A DNA stretch of 21,711 nucleotides from Promethearchaeia archaeon (GCA_046497275.1 JAWOFX010000090.1:1-21711); one strand, 5' to 3'. Shown: positions 1,678 to 21,486, numbered from the stretch's first letter. Numbers and translations are program-made. Notes: a model not told the origin generated them from the letters alone.

Positions 1678-1950
1678 ATCTATTTTCTAAAATGATTTCT
1701 AAAATAAAAAATTTAATGAGATTTTAGATTATTTTCTCTATTTCTCTAATTCTTACAGAAAACTTAATACTCCTCATAATAAAAATCTAAAAAATTTAAT
1801 TTGTATCCATAATAATATCTCATTTTGATCATTCACTTCTTAGATATCGTTAATCTAACTTTCATAATCAGAAAAAATAAATTGATTCTACAATTTTTTC
1901 AATCAAGAAAAAATAATAATTATACCTTAAAATTTATGGTGATTTTTGAA

Positions 1951-1955
1951 GGGGA
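1951..1955 (+). promoter_or_regulatory. Putative ribosome-binding site of hdrA
   Basis: GGGGA 5 nt upstream of TTG at 1961. A GGTGA is also present at 1938-1942. Confidence 0.45.
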
Positions 1956-1960
1956 TTAAA

Positions 1961-3964
1961 TTGTCTGATGATAAACAGACCAAGGAAGAGATTAGAATAG
2001 GAGTTTACGTTTGTGAATGAGGTGTTAATATTGGTGCTACTGTTGATTGCGAAGCGGTAAGGGACTTTATTGAGGGGCAACCAAACGTGGTTGTTGCGAG
2101 AACCAATAAATTTACGTGTAGTGATCCCGGTCAGCAAGTTATTAGAAATGACATTTTAGAATTAGATCTTAACAGAATAGTTGTTGCGGCCTGCACTCCT
2201 AAAATTCATGAACCAACCTATAGAGCAGTATTAATTGAAGCGGGTCTTAGTCCTTATTATTTCCAAATGGTTAATATTAGAGAGCAATGTTCTTTCGTTC
2301 ATGCTGATGATAAGGAAAATGCTACAAAAAAGGCGATAAGACTTGTCATCGGAGGGATTAATCGTGCGAGAGAATTAGAAAATATTCCTCGTATAGAAAT
2401 TCCAATCGAAAATTCAGTTCTTGTCGTTGGTGCGGGAATTGCTGGAATGAATGCTGCCCTAGATTTAGCTAGTCAAGGTATAAAGGTTTATTTGGTTGAG
2501 AAAGAGGCCACCATTGGTGGAAAAATGGCACAATTAGACCGAATATTTCCTACTGATGATTGTGGGATCTGAGTATTGGCTCCAATAATGGTAAATGCAT
2601 CAAAACATCCGAATATTGAATTAATAACATATAGTGATATAATAGAATTTAGTGGTATTACAGGCAGTTATAATGTGAGGATAAGAAAAAATCCACGATA
2701 TGTTGATCCTGATAAATGCACTGGCTGTGGATTATGTACAACTAAATGTCCGATTAGTATGCCTAATGAATTTGATAGAGGTATCGGTGAACGGGGAGCA
2801 ATATATATTCCATTTCCACAAGCAGTTCCGAAACTAGCATTAATTGATAAAGAAGCGTGTATCGAATGTAAATCATGTGAGCGTACATGTCCCGGGGAGG
2901 CTATAGATTTTGAACAAGAGCCGGAATATGTTGATATAAAGGTTGGGGCTGTTATTATTGCGACTGGTTGGGATGAATATCCTATTTGGGAGTCAAATGA
3001 ATATAAATATGGTATTTATCCTGATGTAATTACTCAAATTGAATTAGAAAGGATGCTCAGTCCAATAGGACCTACTGATGGTCATGTCCATAGAATATCT
3101 GACGGTAAAATACCCAAAAAAGTTGCGATGATACAATGTGTTGGATCCAGAACGTTGAGAGGTAATCAATATTGTTCTGCTGTGTGTTGTAATGTAGCCC
3201 TAAAGAACTCTCAATTGTTAAAGCAAGAATACCCCGAAATTGAGGTTATGATATTTTATATTGACATTCGATCGCCGGATAAAGGCAATGAAGAATATTA
3301 TCGAAAGATACGGGAAGCAAATATTTCTTTTATAAAAGGAAAGCCTGGTGATATTAAATTAAATGAAGATGGTACAATGAGATTATTCTATGATAATGCG
3401 TTATTAGATGAAGTAACACATGTGGATGTAGACCTAGTAATCTTATCTACTGGAATTATTCCATCGAAAGGTACACATCAAATAATAGAGACTATGGGAT
3501 TAAGTAGTGGCCCGAATGGATTTTTATCTGAAATTCATGGATGTTTAAAACCACAAGAAACAGATAATATTGGTATTTATATTTGTGGATGCGCTGCTGG
3601 ACCTAAAAGTATTCCATATTCAGTATCAACAGCATTAGCTGCTGCGAGTAAAGCTTCAACCCTTCTTTCTAATGATACATATAGCCAAGAATTAATCATA
3701 GCAGAAGTTAATGAAGATCTATGCATGGGTTGTCATAGATGTGAAAAAGTATGTTACTATGATGCAATTAAAGTTGGAGAGAATGATATCGCGGAAGTGA
3801 ACGAATTAAAGTGCAAAGGATGTGGCGCATGTGTAACTTCTTGCCCAGCAAGAGCTATTGATATAAAATATTATCGAGAAAGACAATTTGAACAGGAAAT
3901 CAAGGGATTAGCTATGGCTGAATCAATTCCAATTAAAGAAACGAAAGCTATAGCAGAAAAATAA
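1961..3964 (+). CDS. hdrA: Heterodisulfide reductase subunit A (FAD/Fe-S electron-bifurcating flavoprotein), selenoprotein with two in-frame UGA codons (Sec20 at 2018-2020, Sec205 at 2573-2575), 667 aa
   Basis: Reading through the TGAs gives one frame: MSDDKQTKEEIRIGVYVCE-U-GVNIGATVD (HdrA N-terminal RIGVYVCxCG motif), ACTP, EQC, VVGAGIAG FAD motif, FPTDDCGI-U-VLAPIM (HdrA FPTxDCxxC motif), four ferredoxin-type CxxCxxCxxxC motifs, QCVGSR and YCSAVCC. Track ORFs 2087-2572 and 2576-3964 are in the same frame, separated only by TGA. Confidence 0.95.
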
Positions 3965-3982: not shown

Positions 3983-4402
3983 ATGTCAAAAGATAATAAA
4001 AAGAGAAATATAATTGCTTTTGCGTGCGATAAATGAGGGTACGCAGCCGCAGATTTGACGGGCACTACGAGAAAGTCGTATGATACTGATGTGAATATAA
4101 TTCGAGTCAGATGTACAGGAAGAGTTGGAATTCATTTAATTATGGATTGTTTTTTGAACGGTGCTGACGGAGTAGCCATTATTTCTTGACAAGAAGGAGA
4201 ATGCGAATTTGGAAATGGTAATATGGTCACCTATAAACATCTATCAATGTTAAAAAAAATATTTGATCATTTAGGAATTTCTGATGAGAGAATTCAGCAA
4301 TATTTTTGTTCAGCAGCCGATGTTGAGAAATTTGTAAATTCAGTGAAAGATATTCATAAGAGGATTCACAAACTACCTCCTATATCTAAGAAAACCGAAT
4401 AG
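3983..4402 (+). CDS. mvhD: MvhD/VhuD [2Fe-2S] hydrogenase/Hdr adaptor subunit, selenoprotein with two in-frame UGA codons (Sec18 at 4034-4036, Sec69 at 4187-4189), 139 aa; missing from the ORF track
   Basis: Manual translation: MSKDNKKRNIIAFACDK-U-GYAAADLTGTTRKSYDTDVNIIRVRCTGRVGIHLIMDCFLNGADGVAIIS-U-QEGECEFGNGNMVTYKHLSMLKKIFDHLGISDERIQQYFCSAADVEKFVNSVKDIHKRIHKLPPISKKTE-TAG. This matches the MvhD pattern CxxCxYxxAD...RVxCxGR...GADGV...xCxxGxC. Confidence 0.95.
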
Positions 4403-4464
4403 GATGAATCTTTCGAATAAATTTTAGTCGTAAAGATGACAGCCTCGCAAGGGTTATTTCGGTT
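4393..4464 (+). promoter_or_regulatory. Putative SECIS element of eukaryote-like (AUGA/GA kink-turn core) type
   Basis: AUGA at 4404-4407 and GA at 4438-4439. Helix AUCUUU (4408-4413) pairs with AAAGAU (4432-4437), then CGA (4414-4416) with UCG (4428-4430). AAA at 4419-4421 in the apical part. Lower helix AACCGAA (4393-4399) pairs with UUCGGUU (4458-4464). Located immediately after the stop of a two-UGA gene. Confidence 0.8.
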
Positions 4465-4519
4465 ATGAACTTTTTCATGATATTAAGTTTAAGAATTAAA
4501 AAATGTTTAAATACGAATT

Positions 4520-6022
4520 ATGAGCAATAAGGGAAGTAATGAGATAATTTTTTCAAGGAAATTCTTCAAAGCTATTATGCAAACTTTAGATTCATATAAA
4601 GTTCGAGCGTTAATTGATGCTAAAGAAGATATCATTGAAGTAGGTATCTATTCCGAAGCTCAGTATTTCAATATCTTATTTGAATTGATTGATGAAGAGA
4701 AATTAAAATATGAATTGTATGAGTATCTTAAAGAACAAGGAGAAGCTGATATTTCTCAATTAGAAATGTTTGCAAAACATAAAGATATTCGACTTAATAA
4801 AACCCTAAGTTTGTGCTATCTTTTAGAAAGAGAAGGATTAATCAATATTGAAGAAATATATGAAAAAAGCAAAAACTCTGAAGAAGAAACTTTACAAATA
4901 TTTAAAAATTTTAATTTTTCAGTAAATAATGTTGATATTACATCGATTAAACCAATTTATGAACCAGTACAAATCATATTTGACTCAAATATATGTTCGG
5001 GTTGTGGATTGTGTGCGGGTATATGTCCCATGAATTGTATTACCATAAATAATGGTTTTGGAGAAATCGATGATGATAAATGTATACGATGTGGATTATG
5101 TTATTATGTTTGTCCTCGTACTTATCTCCCAGTAAAACTTCTCAATATATATCAAGATGATGCTTCTGAAGTTAAGAATTATAGTAAAATTGGTGTTTAT
5201 AAAGAAGCATACAGTGCAAGAACGAAAATAGATGAAATAAAAGAAGTATGTCAAGATGGAGGAGTATCAAGCACTTGTTTATATTATCTTTTAGAAAATA
5301 ACAAAATAGATCTCGCAATAGGAGCAAAGATGGGAGAGAAGTTATGGTGCCCCGAACCAACTCTAATTAAAGATAAAAAAGATATAATTGAAACTGCTGG
5401 AACCAAATATGTTAACAATCCAAATCTAAAATTGTTGAATGAGATTGATCCAGAGAAAAAAGTAGCGATAGTTGGAGTACCATGTATGATGCAAGCTCTG
5501 TTAAAGTCAAAAATATATGATATTAATATTCCCCTACTGAATAACATCCAATATCGTATTGGGATTTTTTGTATGGAGTCCTTTCCTTATGAAGAGGGAT
5601 TTTTGAAGATTTGTGAGAGATTAAATGTTGAGGTTAATGATGTAAAAAAGACCGATATCAATAAAGGAAAATTCTTTGTGTATACTAAAAATGGTGAAGA
5701 ACTCAATGTTCCAATTAAAGAAGTCACAAATTTGGCAAGAGAAGATTGTGAGGTGTGTTATGATCTCACATCTGAATCTGCAGATATTTCAATAGGGTCG
5801 ATTGGAGCTCCTTCAGGATGGAATGTTGTATTAGTAAGAAATGAAAGAGGAAAAGAATTATATGACGCTTTAATAGAAAATGGTCTCATTGAATCAAAAC
5901 CTATCGAAGAAGTCAAGCCTGGACTCCCTCTTCTCCTAAAAATTGCTAACAGTAAAAAAAATAAAAGTTCTAAACATATTTTAAAAAAGATAGAAAATGA
6001 AAAAAGATATCCGTATTATTAA
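4520..6022 (+). CDS. FrhB/FdhB-family F420-binding FAD oxidoreductase subunit with a 2x[4Fe-4S] ferredoxin domain and an extra N-terminal domain of about 150 aa
   Basis: CSGCGLCAGICP and CIRCGLCYYVCP, then FrhB-type motifs QDGGVSST, AGTKY, VAIVGVPC, IGIFCMESF, CEVCYD and DISIGSIGAPSGW. Confidence 0.88.
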   Translation: MSNKGSNEIIFSRKFFKAIMQTLDSYKVRALIDAKEDIIEVGIYSEAQYFNILFELIDEEKLKYELYEYLKEQGEADISQLEMFAKHKDIRLNKTLSLCYLLEREGLINIEEIYEKSKNSEEETLQIFKNFNFSVNNVDITSIKPIYEPVQIIFDSNICSGCGLCAGICPMNCITINNGFGEIDDDKCIRCGLCYYVCPRTYLPVKLLNIYQDDASEVKNYSKIGVYKEAYSARTKIDEIKEVCQDGGVSSTCLYYLLENNKIDLAIGAKMGEKLWCPEPTLIKDKKDIIETAGTKYVNNPNLKLLNEIDPEKKVAIVGVPCMMQALLKSKIYDINIPLLNNIQYRIGIFCMESFPYEEGFLKICERLNVEVNDVKKTDINKGKFFVYTKNGEELNVPIKEVTNLAREDCEVCYDLTSESADISIGSIGAPSGWNVVLVRNERGKELYDALIENGLIESKPIEEVKPGLPLLLKIANSKKNKSSKHILKKIENEKRYPYY

Positions 6023-8666: not shown

Positions 8667-10445
8667 ATGAGTAAAATGGAGAAAAATCGCCCTATTATTG
8701 AAGAAATTAAGGATATTTATCATTATTTGACGGAAGGAGAGCCAAATCCAGATGATGAAATTGAAGCTCAAAAAGAATTAACTGAAAAATTTGAAAAATT
8801 AAAAGAATATAATGAGTTTCCAGATAAAAAGTCCCTTATCGAAGAGATCATAGCAAAATTAAAAGAGTGGGATACATTAGAATACTGGTTTATAGAGACG
8901 CCCTTGCCTAAAAAAATAGATGAATTATTACAAATCAAAAAGGAAGAGCAAACAGAAGAATCGGAATTAGAATTAGAAGAGAAAAGTAGAAAAAAATCTG
9001 AAGTTGATATATCTGAAATTATGTCTCAATTATCTGAACAATTTAAAGGGGAAATTGATACACTAAGAGAAGAAATCGATTCACTGAAAAATGAAATTAA
9101 AAATAAAGAGGATATCATCCAGACTATTAAAAGTAAAAAACAAGTAAAAAAAATCACTCCTAAAAAAGAAGGAACCTCTAAATTGCCTCCTTTAGAAATT
9201 CATTTACCGGCCGTTAAAAAAGCAGAAGAAAAAATTATGAAAGAGGCAGGAATTAGTGAGAAACAGGTTCAACGGGGTGAAGATCAAAGTAGTATCGAAT
9301 CAGTAGAAAATGAATTGTTAGACAGAGAAACGAAGCTACAGAAAAAACAAGAACAGTATAAAGAAAAATTAGAAGTCTCTTTACAGCAATTAAAAGCTAG
9401 TAAAAAGGAACAAACAGAAGAAAGAGAAGAGTTTATTGAAGTACAAGATGAAGTTATCCTGGAAAAACCTATAGAAAAACCAGAAACTGAATCTTTTAAG
9501 GAAGTAGAAATGGAAACAACTCAAAAATCTCTAGAAGAGCATTTAGTTGAGGAGAATCTCTCAGAAACAGAAGAATATAAAATTAAGAAACCAGAACTAA
9601 AAGAAAGTGAACTGTCTCCAACTAGTAAGGAAAAACAAGAGATCCAAGAACAAGAGTTAACCACCATTCCAACAAATGAAGTGTGGGAAGAAGAAAATGT
9701 GGTGACCCCCCCTCCAACAAAGCCCACTGTGTCCACAACACCTCCTACCCCTCCTCGAAAAACTATTCCTTCAAAACCTGCCCAAACTTCCGAAAAATCT
9801 TTTTCTGAACAAGAACACCATATTCCTCAGAATATTGAACAAGAAGATATGCCAAAAACACTGCCTCCAAAAAAACCAACTATATCCACTATGGCCGTTG
9901 AGGAACCCGTCAATAAGGAACTGAAACAGATGCCAGAGAAACCTCCAAAAATGAAAAGTATTGCCGAAGTCGAAGTAGAAGAAACAGAAATGCCATCTCA
10001 AGAGCCCTTAAAAACTGATTTATTTAGTGTATTCTCTTCAATGGGGAAGAAAAATGAGTCAAAACCTAAGGAAAAACCTAATCTTGAATCGATAAAAAGC
10101 TTTATACCGGGGGGAATAGAGGAAAAAAATGTTGAAAAACCTCCTGTCGAACCTCCTAAGAAAGATATTACTCCAGAACCTCCAGAAGAGGACTATTCAG
10201 AAGAAATAGAATCAAAAAGCATTGAAGAATTACCTAAGGATAAGGATGCATTATATCAAGAATTAATTGCATTAGAGGGTAAAAGATATAGTTTAGAAAA
10301 GTCTTTTAAGGAATTAGAAAAAAGATATAATAAAGGGAGCATTGACGAGCATGAATTTAAATCCGAGGGAGAAAAATTAAAAGATAGTTTAAACGAAATC
10401 ACTAGAAGAATTACTAACATACGAAGAATAGTAGCGAGTATGTAA
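8667..10445 (+). CDS. Hypothetical 592-aa acidic protein: helical N-terminus, coiled coil, long Glu/Lys/Pro-rich low-complexity linker, helical C-terminal domain
   Basis: Long open frame with typical purine-rich codon usage. Composition seen directly. No family recognised with confidence. Confidence 0.85.
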   Translation: MSKMEKNRPIIEEIKDIYHYLTEGEPNPDDEIEAQKELTEKFEKLKEYNEFPDKKSLIEEIIAKLKEWDTLEYWFIETPLPKKIDELLQIKKEEQTEESELELEEKSRKKSEVDISEIMSQLSEQFKGEIDTLREEIDSLKNEIKNKEDIIQTIKSKKQVKKITPKKEGTSKLPPLEIHLPAVKKAEEKIMKEAGISEKQVQRGEDQSSIESVENELLDRETKLQKKQEQYKEKLEVSLQQLKASKKEQTEEREEFIEVQDEVILEKPIEKPETESFKEVEMETTQKSLEEHLVEENLSETEEYKIKKPELKESELSPTSKEKQEIQEQELTTIPTNEVWEEENVVTPPPTKPTVSTTPPTPPRKTIPSKPAQTSEKSFSEQEHHIPQNIEQEDMPKTLPPKKPTISTMAVEEPVNKELKQMPEKPPKMKSIAEVEVEETEMPSQEPLKTDLFSVFSSMGKKNESKPKEKPNLESIKSFIPGGIEEKNVEKPPVEPPKKDITPEPPEEDYSEEIESKSIEELPKDKDALYQELIALEGKRYSLEKSFKELEKRYNKGSIDEHEFKSEGEKLKDSLNEITRRITNIRRIVASM

Positions 10446-19829: not shown

Positions 19830-20330
19830 ATGGATCCTCTCCTAACTCATGATAAAAATTCAAAAAAATCAAATCCGTCTAATAATGATAGTATAGACAA
19901 AAGAGCCAAAGAATTATTAAAAGAAACCAAAGTTCTAAATCTCGCAAAATTAGCAAATATGTTAGTCAGTTTATTTGGATTAGAAGATGGATTTAAGAAA
20001 ATCACAAAGAGAGAAGGTCAAGAAGTTGAACTATATATCCCCGCTTTTGAGGGGTATTTAAATTTTCCACTTGTAAAAAAAAAAGATAATTTCGAATGTA
20101 GAGCAGAACGTGCTAATGATCCAGTAGCAACTGTGATAATAAATGTAGAGGAAGATAAAGTTTTAAAGGTTTTTAGTGAAATTATAAGAAGTAAAGCAAA
20201 TTTATCTGGACTTATCAAACTAGTTCCAAAAATTCTCTTAAGAAAAATAAAAATAAAAGGCTCATTAATGGCTGCATTAAGCCTTGTGAAATGCCTCATG
20301 ATTGGGAAAAATAAAATATACAAAAAATAA
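19830..20330 (+). CDS. Hypothetical protein, possible SCP2-like lipid-binding fold
   Basis: Beta-rich core then ...RKIKIKGSLMAALSL, resembling the kikikG...al.l end of SCP2 domains. Weak recognition only. Confidence 0.5.
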   Translation: MDPLLTHDKNSKKSNPSNNDSIDKRAKELLKETKVLNLAKLANMLVSLFGLEDGFKKITKREGQEVELYIPAFEGYLNFPLVKKKDNFECRAERANDPVATVIINVEEDKVLKVFSEIIRSKANLSGLIKLVPKILLRKIKIKGSLMAALSLVKCLMIGKNKIYKK

Positions 20331-20343
20331 ATTTAGAGTAGAG

Positions 20344-21486
20344 ATGACTCAATTAAACAATGATTCTTTTTTAGAAATCGCGGAAAAGATACCAAATCAA
20401 TATATTGAAAATAGCGATAAAAAAATCGCAGGATATTATTGTACTTATATTCCAGAGGAATTATTAGATGCTGCAGGTTTATTTCCCTATCGGATAAGAG
20501 CGACTGGTAATGCTGATACTGATAAAGCAGATACCTATATGGTTCGATTCACTTGCTCTTTTGTTAGAAGCACCCTAAATCTTGCGTTAGAAGGGGTTTA
20601 TGATTTCTTGGATGGATTATTCATATGCAATAGCTGTGATCATAGTAGAAGGATGTATGAAATTTATGATATGGTTGTATTTAAGCGTAAAGGCTTCAAC
20701 AAAAAAGTACCTAGATTTTATATTTCAATACCTCATATTCTTTCTGAAGAAGGCTTAGAGTGGTTTTTAGGTGAAATTTATGAACTTAAAGATAATATAG
20801 AAAAAGCTTATGAAATAAAAATAACTGATGATGCTTTGGTTAAATCTATAGAATTGTATAATAGAAATCGAGAACTAATGAGAAAGATTAATGAATTAAG
20901 ATTATTAGATTCACCAAAATTGACGGGAAGCGAAGCCTTAAAGATATCTATGGCAAATACATCTGTACCAAAAGAAGTTGCTAATCAAGAATTAGAGAGA
21001 TTATTGGAAATATATAATTATAAAGATGGAATAGAAACACAAGGTAAGAAGAGAATTTTATTATTGGGAAGCGTTGTGGATAATACTCAATTCACACAAT
21101 TAATTGAAAGTGCAAATGCAATTATTATATCAGACAACCTTTGTTTCGGAAATAAGGTAATTATTGATGATGTAGAGAGAAATGAATCAGAATCCCCATT
21201 GGAGAGTATTACTAGACGACTATATTATCGCTTATCTTGCCCCAGAATGATGCAAGATCATCAAAGAAGGCTTGATTTCGTTAAAAATGAAATTAAGAAG
21301 GGAAAAATTGATGGCGTTCTTTTACAACGTATCAATAATTGTGATTTGCATGGATGTGACAATATGTTGTTTGAACATGAATTAAAAAAATTAGAAATCC
21401 CTGTTTTCAATTTAGATAGAGAGAATTTCCAGTCAGATACAAACAGATTACAGACTCGTATTGAAGCTTTTTTAGAAATGATTTAA
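20344..21486 (+). CDS. 2-hydroxyacyl-CoA dehydratase subunit (HgdB/FldC/BcrB-BadD family)
   Basis: GYYCTYIPEELLDAAG, FTCSFVRS, CNSCDHSRR, DNLCFG, SCPRM, CDLHGCD and RLQTRIEAFLEMI. ATG 20344 is preferred because it avoids the overlap of the track start at 20302. Confidence 0.9.
   Translation: MTQLNNDSFLEIAEKIPNQYIENSDKKIAGYYCTYIPEELLDAAGLFPYRIRATGNADTDKADTYMVRFTCSFVRSTLNLALEGVYDFLDGLFICNSCDHSRRMYEIYDMVVFKRKGFNKKVPRFYISIPHILSEEGLEWFLGEIYELKDNIEKAYEIKITDDALVKSIELYNRNRELMRKINELRLLDSPKLTGSEALKISMANTSVPKEVANQELERLLEIYNYKDGIETQGKKRILLLGSVVDNTQFTQLIESANAIIISDNLCFGNKVIIDDVERNESESPLESITRRLYYRLSCPRMMQDHQRRLDFVKNEIKKGKIDGVLLQRINNCDLHGCDNMLFEHELKKLEIPVFNLDRENFQSDTNRLQTRIEAFLEMI

Follow-up and report, generated by a model that had tools for sequence, protein, structure and literature searches.

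In a Promethearchaeia archaeon, the TGA at positions 2018-2020 of the stretch of DNA analysed here (21,711 nucleotides, GCA_046497275.1 JAWOFX010000090.1:1-21711, hereafter the window) is best read as a selenocysteine (Sec) codon, placing Sec20 near the N-terminus of a HdrA that carries two such residues. The overall reading, to which we attach a probability of about 0.88, is that Sec20 and the canonical Sec204 depend on a lokiSECIS element shared with the downstream gene vhuD, and that both residues likely lie at one metal site. A preliminary description of this DNA, made from the sequence, had proposed Sec instead of a stop at this codon and a HdrA with two Sec, and both proposals are borne out: the TGA is kept in orthologues, the protein is conserved on both sides of it, a SECIS and the machinery for its use are present, and the translation contains U20 and U204. 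The named relatives are Promethearchaeota or Promethearchaeia metagenome-assembled genomes (Lokiarchaeota), and the window genome itself belongs to the Promethearchaeota (Lokiarchaeota). The window hdrA is one more orthologue of a known Asgard multi-Sec feature.

With TGA translated as U, the codons TGT GAA TGA GGT at 2012-2023 lie within R-I-G-V-Y-V-C-E-U-G-V-N-I-G, and residue 204 closes the string F-P-T-D-D-C-G-I-U. Comparison of the protein with the PDB by phmmer covers residues about 10-650 and returns 9SFI_A (E 2e-213), 8RVU (9e-207), 5ODC (4e-206) and 7BKB (6e-157), and its Pfam matches are four Fer4 domains and FAD/NAD Rossmann domains. The translation holds the full motif set of the type I five-domain HdrA, namely four N-domain Cys columns, the FAD-binding GxGxxG and D-C-x-x-C, along with a C-x-x-x-C-C cluster motif and the inserted and C-terminal 2x[4Fe-4S] ferredoxin domains; two Cys columns of the set are taken by Sec. 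Full-length homology to characterised HdrA identifies the predicted protein as HdrA in its type I five-domain form. The NCBIfam HdrA models score it at 602-826 bits, all under their curated cut-offs of 1100-1400 bits; these models are 762-777 positions long, and positions 1-642 of the HdrA2 model match the window HdrA and positions 644-775 match VhuD.

The N-terminal motif of solved HdrA structures is C-x-C-G, as in V-C-Y-C-G of M. maripaludis (9SFI) and V-C-H-C-G of M. marburgensis (8RVU). As already suggested in the preliminary description, Sec20 would substitute the second Cys of this invariant motif, judging from the aligned sequences. That description had also recognised the classical FPTxDCxxU site further downstream, and the site is indeed there, although its coordinate of 2573 was three bases off and the codon occupies 2570-2572. 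The features of the locus are collected in Table 1.

Table 1. Features around hdrA and vhuD, with positions counted from the first nucleotide of the window.
Feature	Position	Strand	Details and basis
Shine-Dalgarno-like AGGGGAT	1950..1956	+	4 nt upstream of the TTG start; direct sequence reading
hdrA, 667 codons	1961..3964	+	TTG start 1961, TAA stop 3962-3964, two in-frame TGA; translation
Cys18 (TGT)	2012..2014	+	Opening residue of the C-x-U motif; Sec in none of the homologues examined
TGA, Sec20, hdrA codon 20	2018..2020	+	Corresponds to Cys13 in 5ODC and Cys21 in 8RVY (structural register)
TGA, Sec204, hdrA codon 204	2570..2572	+	Canonical HdrA Sec site; Cys197 of 5ODC, Sec197 of M. maripaludis 9SFI (PMC13518236)
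vhuD/mvhD, 139 codons, TAG stop	3983..4402	+	Pfam FlpD 134 bits; NCBIfam VhuD 129 bits, under the curated cut-off of 215
TGA, U18 of vhuD	4034-4036	+	C-D-K-U-G; translation
TGA, U69 of vhuD	4187-4189	+	S-U-Q-E-G-E-C; translation
Extended SECIS region	4392..4474	+	Lower stem CCGAA 4395-4399 with TTCGG about 4463-4467; by eye in the 20-orthologue alignment
lokiSECIS core	4404..4439	+	ATGA 4404-4407, stem 4409-4416/4428-4436, TGA 4437-4439 supplying the 3' G-A
frhB-family gene, N-terminal 2x[4Fe-4S] part	4520..6022	+	Pfam FrhB_FdhB_N and _C, Fer4; NCBIfam PRK09325, 287 bits

Among the larger ORFs of the window that were scanned, a scan that was not exhaustive, none has a Pfam match to hdrB or hdrC, so the functional claim is limited to an HdrA-family bifurcating module. 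The frhB-family gene, which is co-oriented with hdrA and vhuD, is a possible candidate for the electron-input partner of such a module. Elsewhere in the window, an ORF spanning 20284-21486 has two TGAs in its upstream part but proves to be an ordinary HGD-D gene that starts at 20302.

The conservation of the N-terminal TGA was followed across the phylum by searching residues 1-240 against 400 of its genomes, and nearly all of the best ~150 matches listed have two in-frame TGAs within this stretch. All 30 of the best orthologue loci have a TGA at the Sec20 column and a second one at D-C-G-I-U, and each of the 30 has an ATG, TTG or GTG start 9-12 codons before the N-terminal TGA, within a conserved N-terminus (M/L/V-S-D/E-K-Q-T) found at the same place as in the window hdrA. 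A true start downstream of 2020 had been named in the preliminary description as something that could undo its reading, as had relatives without UGA or Cys at this column; the start proves to lie upstream of the TGA in all orthologues, and column 20 contains only TGA or Cys. In the 80 named loci, every orthologue-type locus that covers the N-terminus has TGA20 (49 loci, with either Sec20 and Sec204 or Sec20, Sec78 and Sec204), and TGA20 is present in 64/64 unique orthologue segments, these having been chosen by their C-x-U motif. Across these segments, 31 of the 32 flanking codons vary at their third position while the amino acids are conserved, R-I-G-V-Y-V-C-x-U-G-V-N-I-G being at least 97% conserved at most positions, and the neighbouring Cys18 is encoded by TGT in 42 and by TGC in 22. 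Altogether, UGA20 has been retained over a long time, being present in about 80 distinct sequences from Asgard archaea whose protein identity falls to ~45%, and its recurrence is far beyond chance.

A wider alignment of 176 HdrA loci (164 unique sequences) combined the paralogues of the window genome with 29 orthologues, with loci from 15 genomes that each represent another family of the phylum, and with the 80 named loci (23 of them bacterial); it was scored at sites 18/20/53/78/201/204. The commonest pattern is that of the window protein, C-U-C-C-C-U, with 79 unique sequences, followed by C-C-C-C-C-C with 72; the rest are C-U-C-U-C-U (6 unique sequences), C-U-U-U-C-U (3), C-C-C-C-C-U (2, one Asgard and one from the Chloroflexota), C-C-U-C-C-U (1) and C-C-C-C-S-E (1), the last being without the canonical Cys pair. 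Columns 18 and 201 have Sec in none of the 164 unique sequences, and relatives show further Sec columns at 53, 78, 253 and 306. All 23 sampled bacterial HdrAs have C-x-C at the N-terminus, and 22 of them are Cys throughout, the remaining one being the Chloroflexota protein with Sec at 204 only. In the Asgard Sec-HdrAs of this table, Sec20 mostly occurs with Sec204; M. maripaludis HdrA (9SFI) has C-Y-C at the N-terminal site and Sec only at 197.

Within the window genome itself there are four Sec-type hdrA genes (on contigs C24, C109, C124 and C171), all four of which combine C-x-U with the canonical U; three of the four add a U at column 78 and one adds a U at column 253. Each is accompanied by a vhuD with two TGA codons and a SECIS, and two Cys-type hdrA paralogues of the genome carry C-x-C. 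The 90 Asgard Sec-HdrAs sampled were all placed in one clade by a quick maximum-likelihood analysis (SH-aLRT 96), and only two of its members, which form one small branch (L134 and L136), have Cys at column 20. By parsimony, Sec20 and Sec204 both look ancestral to the Asgard Sec-HdrA clade. Since a single clade is involved and not repeated independent gains, the co-occurrence of the two residues mostly reflects shared ancestry, and as evidence for their functional coupling it is weak.

The same results bear on why the codon stands so early in the gene. The preliminary description had put forward an early selenium checkpoint, a truncation after 19 codons that aborts synthesis cheaply. On such a view UGA20 would have been selected because, when Sec-tRNA is scarce, a stop there spares the cell the 203-residue fragment that would end at the second UGA. 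Failed recoding at UGA20 would indeed release no more than 19 residues, vhuD likewise has its first UGA early, and the Cys-only HdrA paralogues of the genome could serve as low-selenium back-ups. However, the position of UGA20 is that of a Cys column invariant across the HdrA family and hence set by structure, an N-terminal checkpoint would leave the Sec at 53, 78, 253 and 306 of relatives unexplained, and the Sec20 trait traces to one ancestor. With the position dictated by an invariant column inherited in one clade, and with no sign of selection for early termination, the proposal is not upheld; selection for a checkpoint appears improbable, and a checkpoint effect of UGA20 would be a by-product at best.

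How the UGA codons might be recoded is suggested by what follows hdrA. The spacer between hdrA and vhuD is 18 nt, from which it may be inferred that the two genes share one mRNA, and the lokiSECIS core begins directly after the TAG of vhuD. One unpaired base separates its ATGA from a stem of 8 bp with one bulged base, which is closed by an 11-nt A-rich apical loop at 4417-4427 (A-U-A-A-A...). In an alignment of 20 orthologues, the ATGA and the AAA of the loop are invariant and compensatory changes occur at 8/8 stem pairs; a second small hairpin can be made out by eye between the 3' GA of the SECIS and the lower stem. The 3' side varies among orthologues (UGA, AGA, GGA, UAA, GAA or AAA), which matches the AUGA_GA and AUGA_AA variants of SECIS reported earlier (PMC11227280). 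From these sequence features, the element is classified as a lokiSECIS, an Asgard type I eSECIS-like element. A scan of the window with Rfam at gathering thresholds gives no match, SECIS included, and since the Rfam SECIS families miss the element, a covariance model of our own was built from the 20-orthologue alignment. This model scores 63.6 bits at 4404-4439, its sole strong match in the window; when run over the whole window it gives no further SECIS at the start of hdrA, all other matches being noise-like at 15.9 bits or less. Across the genome it has six to eight matches, including those behind two other hdrA-vhuD pairs (C109 and C171).

The genome also encodes what is needed to use such an element. 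A tRNA-Sec (49.4 bits, above the Rfam cut-off) adjoins the gene for SepSecS (381 bits), SelD is found at 173 bits and itself has one in-frame TGA, and a PSTK/KTI12-family match (118 bits) contains one in-frame TAG. A SelB-like candidate for EFSec, which reaches 234 bits with the bacterial SelB model and falls just short of its 242-bit cut-off, lies near a second tRNA-Sec copy at a contig end; within the window, ARAGORN finds no tRNA. Se insertion at the UGA codons is inferred from the codon, its conservation, the SECIS and these machinery genes. On the mechanism proposed here, four UGA codons (hdrA 20 and 204, vhuD 18 and 69) would be recoded through the single eukaryote-like lokiSECIS after the vhuD stop, which would act on UGA20 from about 2.4 kb downstream.

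A more conventional reading would take TGA20 as a true stop or an error, with the protein starting at GTG 2087 or the gene being broken. Standard gene callers do split hdrA into 2087-2572 and 2576-3964, and the silence of Rfam agrees with them. Such a reading is difficult to reconcile with the retention of TGA20 in so many divergent Asgard sequences, with protein conservation and synonymous variation on both sides of it, or with a covarying SECIS and the full Sec machinery in the genome; moreover, a start at GTG 2087 would cost the N-domain its beta-1 strand and half of its four invariant Cys. A stop or an error at TGA20 is accordingly regarded as very unlikely. Genome-wide reassignment of TGA (to Trp, Gly or Cys, for example) is likewise very unlikely, for although all 18 main ORFs of the window stop at codons other than TGA, the 16 other than hdrA and vhuD, which hold all four, have no in-frame TGA, the in-frame TGAs align solely with Cys columns, the neighbouring Cys18 uses TGT or TGC, and a dedicated tRNA-Sec, SepSecS, PSTK/KTI12-family match, SelD and SECIS are at hand.

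If TGA20 encodes Sec, as preferred here, the next question concerns where Sec20 lies relative to Sec204. An AlphaFold model of residues 10-135 (pLDDT 95) superposes on residues 3-128 of 5ODC (Z 22.5) and 11-136 of 8RVY, overall with Z 22-25, an rmsd of ~0.9 Å and no gaps, and the resulting register equates Sec20 with the Cys residues given in Table 1 and Sec204 with Cys205 of M. marburgensis as well as Cys197 of 5ODC. In this N-domain model, the invariant Cys columns 18/20, 53 and 78 lie at the C-terminal ends of beta-1, beta-2 and beta-3, the face on which flavodoxin-like folds usually hold their cofactor.

The N-domain of HdrA has a single [4Fe-4S] cluster, designated HA3 or A3, whose ligands in the crystal are N-domain Cys residues and Cys197 of the partner protomer (PMC9012536); as only three N-domain Cys are used beside Cys197', the invariant set of four in this domain includes one non-ligand in the crystal state. 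In cryo-EM states HA3 is a mobile shuttle cluster (PMC13580544), and in M. maripaludis Sec197 sits between A3 and FAD, with density for a Se-S bond (PMC13518236). Because the canonical site, as Cys197, provides a ligand to the partner subunit's N-terminal [4Fe-4S] cluster, both Sec sites concern the same cluster, and from this comparison of structures Sec20 and Sec204 probably converge on one HA3 cluster across the dimer interface. The cryo-EM view of the Cys202/Cys205 pair (201/204 here) is of 'additional' cysteines that bind an unknown ligand and are not HA3 ligands (PMC13580544), so the convergence on one cluster may hold in one conformational state only. As to whether the two sites meet at the same N-terminal cluster, a point the preliminary description had raised, the answer is thus affirmative as far as both concern HA3 via Cys197 (PMC9012536), with Sec20 placed there by its register to Cys13 and its secondary-structure position.

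In mechanistic terms, Sec20 would lie in the loop after beta-1 of the flavodoxin-like N-domain that carries the mobile HA3, in the low-potential branch of bifurcation, and could bind the cluster directly as a selenolate or stand next to it as a redox-active residue. Sec204, at the position of the HA3 ligand Cys197, would reach it from the partner protomer, such that the two Sec meet at one metal site, and the pair would have been inherited jointly from the ancestor of the one Asgard Sec-HdrA clade. A stricter version, in which the HA3 ligands are exactly columns 20, 53 and 78 plus the partner's 204 (197 of 5ODC) and the window protein has two Se ligands, is suggested by the fact that Sec in the N-terminal half of Asgard HdrA occurs only at 20, 53, 78 and 204 and never at Cys18 or Cys201; it is offered tentatively and is considered somewhat unlikely. 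If true, the C-U-U-U-C-U HdrAs of Asgard archaea would hold a [4Fe-4S] cluster bound wholly by selenolates, and selenolate ligation would be a natural tuning of the low-potential branch of electron bifurcation. An alignment of the HdrA N-domain with VhuD by hhalign (probability 11%, E 0.0027) pairs HdrA C53 with VhuD C44 and HdrA C78 with VhuD U69, a parallel between Sec columns of the two proteins that is suggestive and too weak to claim.

Much of this system has been described before. Mariotti et al. (2016; PMC4989117) describe HdrA of Lokiarchaeota in which Sec can occupy five positions, all in conserved Cys columns, with no more than four Sec in any one gene; they further report vhuD always downstream of hdrA, UAA or UAG as the hdrA stop, and a single lokiSECIS after vhuD that serves up to six UGAs over about 2 kb. 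Such a span requires a UGA near the hdrA start, and the Sec20 site was almost certainly covered by that description, with a small doubt as to whether column 20 is named. Our four non-ferredoxin Sec columns (20, 53, 78 and 204), together with sites in the ferredoxin motifs and a maximum of four to five Sec in a gene, fit the count given there. Like the Loki multi-Sec HdrA, the window protein has the canonical Sec and an extra Sec at a conserved Cys column, together with a two-Sec vhuD, here after an 18-nt gap; the gene ends in TAA, the UGA codons are spread over about 2.2 kb, and vhuD is followed by a single SECIS that combines the AUGA...GA core with a ~9-bp stem and an A-rich loop of 11 nt. 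Against that account nothing essential differs, the window copy being a minimal two-Sec version and its same-genome paralogues having three or four. The 2016 paper also states that the Sec sites are not cluster ligands, a statement that predates the 2017 structure and is now out of date, since that structure has at least Cys197 as a ligand. Further, a survey of 1439 Asgard selenoprotein sequences found HdrA and FrhD/VhuD to be the most numerous (Huang et al., 2024; PMC11227280).

The closest solved homologue, M. maripaludis HdrA (9SFI), shares the domain order, F-P-T-D-D-C-x-x-U with Sec 197 (204 here) and a two-Sec vhuD; it differs in having Cys at the N-terminal site and thus a single Sec. 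The system of Methanococcales and Methanopyrus also differs in its euryarchaeal-type SECIS and in being part of the methanogenic Hdr-Vhu-Fwd assembly (PMC13518236). The Cys-type HdrAs of HdrABC-MvhAGD and related complexes that were compared, from M. thermolithotrophicus (5ODC), M. marburgensis (8RVY) and M. hungatei (7BKB), have superposable N-domains (Z 22-25, rmsd 0.9-1.0 Å, 43-57% identity) and share the four invariant N-domain Cys columns, the D-C-x-x-C pair and all cluster motifs, but are Cys throughout.

For annotation, reading UGA20 and UGA204 as Sec yields a complete HdrA, whereas standard gene callers fragment the gene and drop its N-terminal Fe-S domain. Biologically, the window repeats a published Asgard peculiarity, with several Sec per HdrA and one eukaryote-like SECIS whose reach exceeds 2 kb and extends into the preceding gene. 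What goes beyond the 2016 description is that the recurrent Sec columns 20, 53, 78 and 204 map to the mobile HA3 pocket, and recent cryo-EM work makes HA3 central to how electron bifurcation is gated. Should Sec be a ligand of HA3 or exchange there, the Asgard HdrAs would constitute a natural experiment on the selenium tuning of a bifurcating enzyme.

The copy of hdrA in the window is accompanied, in the same assembly, by three further Sec-type hdrA genes (see table), each of which is followed 3' by a two-Sec vhuD and then a lokiSECIS-like hairpin, and it is the window copy that has the fewest Sec of the four. Across the HdrA homologues surveyed, and numbering by the residues of the window copy, Sec in the N-terminal half is confined to columns 20, 53, 78 and 204, and it never occurs at Cys18 or Cys201. 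Some homologues among L207-L210 and L213, which are contigs from uncultured archaeon and Promethearchaeota MAGs, combine Sec at all four columns, with an extra Sec at column 306 in L209. HdrA of another relative (L134, genome G135) has Cys at column 20, yet Sec at 53 and 204.

Features in the window and on other contigs (C) of the same assembly
Feature	Location	Strand	Remarks
FrhB-family gene	window 4520-6022	+	directly 3' of SECIS
592-residue ORF	window 8667-10445	+	flanked by ribosomal protein genes and NAD synthase gene
tRNA-Sec	C33:11-129		
tRNA-Sec	C165:63-181		same match as on C33
SepSecS	C33:2270-3427		
SelB-like	C165:3461-4498		SelB/EFSec-like
Best PSTK/KTI12 match	C60:806-1600		118 bits
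Sec-type hdrA paralogue	C109:18799-20715	-	3 Sec (20, 78, 204)
Sec-type hdrA paralogue	C124:11956-13896	-	4 Sec (20, 78, 204, 253)
Sec-type hdrA paralogue	C171:5216-7168	+	3 Sec (20, 78, 204)

Genes for the Sec machinery are present in the assembly as well. The identical tRNA-Sec match lies at two contig ends, flanked in one case by SepSecS and in the other by the SelB/EFSec-like gene, and these ends are probably a single Sec-machinery locus broken by assembly. The best PSTK/KTI12 match contains one in-frame TAG.

Around the SECIS (window 4392-4474), two elements lie outside the published core. In one, CCGAA and TTCGG form a lower stem that is conserved; the other, between the 3' G-A and this stem, is a second small hairpin, whose two strands, judged by eye, change in step across orthologues. 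None of the 18 main ORFs of the window stops at TGA (TAA 16, TAG 2), which is consistent with an AT-rich genome and with the avoidance of UGA stops by hdrA upstream of a shared SECIS, as described by Mariotti et al. (2016; PMC4989117). The neighbouring FrhB-family gene encodes an N-terminal extension of ~220 residues that includes a 2x[4Fe-4S] part. Non-exhaustive Pfam scans of the window found no hdrB/C or hydrogenase large or small subunit genes, and the 592-residue ORF has no Pfam match.

Five contigs, L197 (DATKTW010000119.1), L169, L172, L177 and L182, carry the labels Nanopelagicaceae bacterium, Hodarchaeota, Odinarchaeota, Thorarchaeota and Hermodarchaeota. Their hdrA genes are 71-76% identical to that of the window and nested among orthologues of this Promethearchaeota gene; the records are likely mislabelled or contaminated MAGs.

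The C-x-x-U-G of VhuD is similar to the C-x-U-G of HdrA. In a weak profile alignment of the two (window 1988-2365 against 3983-4402), HdrA Cys53 is paired with VhuD Cys44, and column 78, which is Sec in the paralogues, with VhuD Sec69. The Sec columns of HdrA and VhuD may be parallel, in two related domains.
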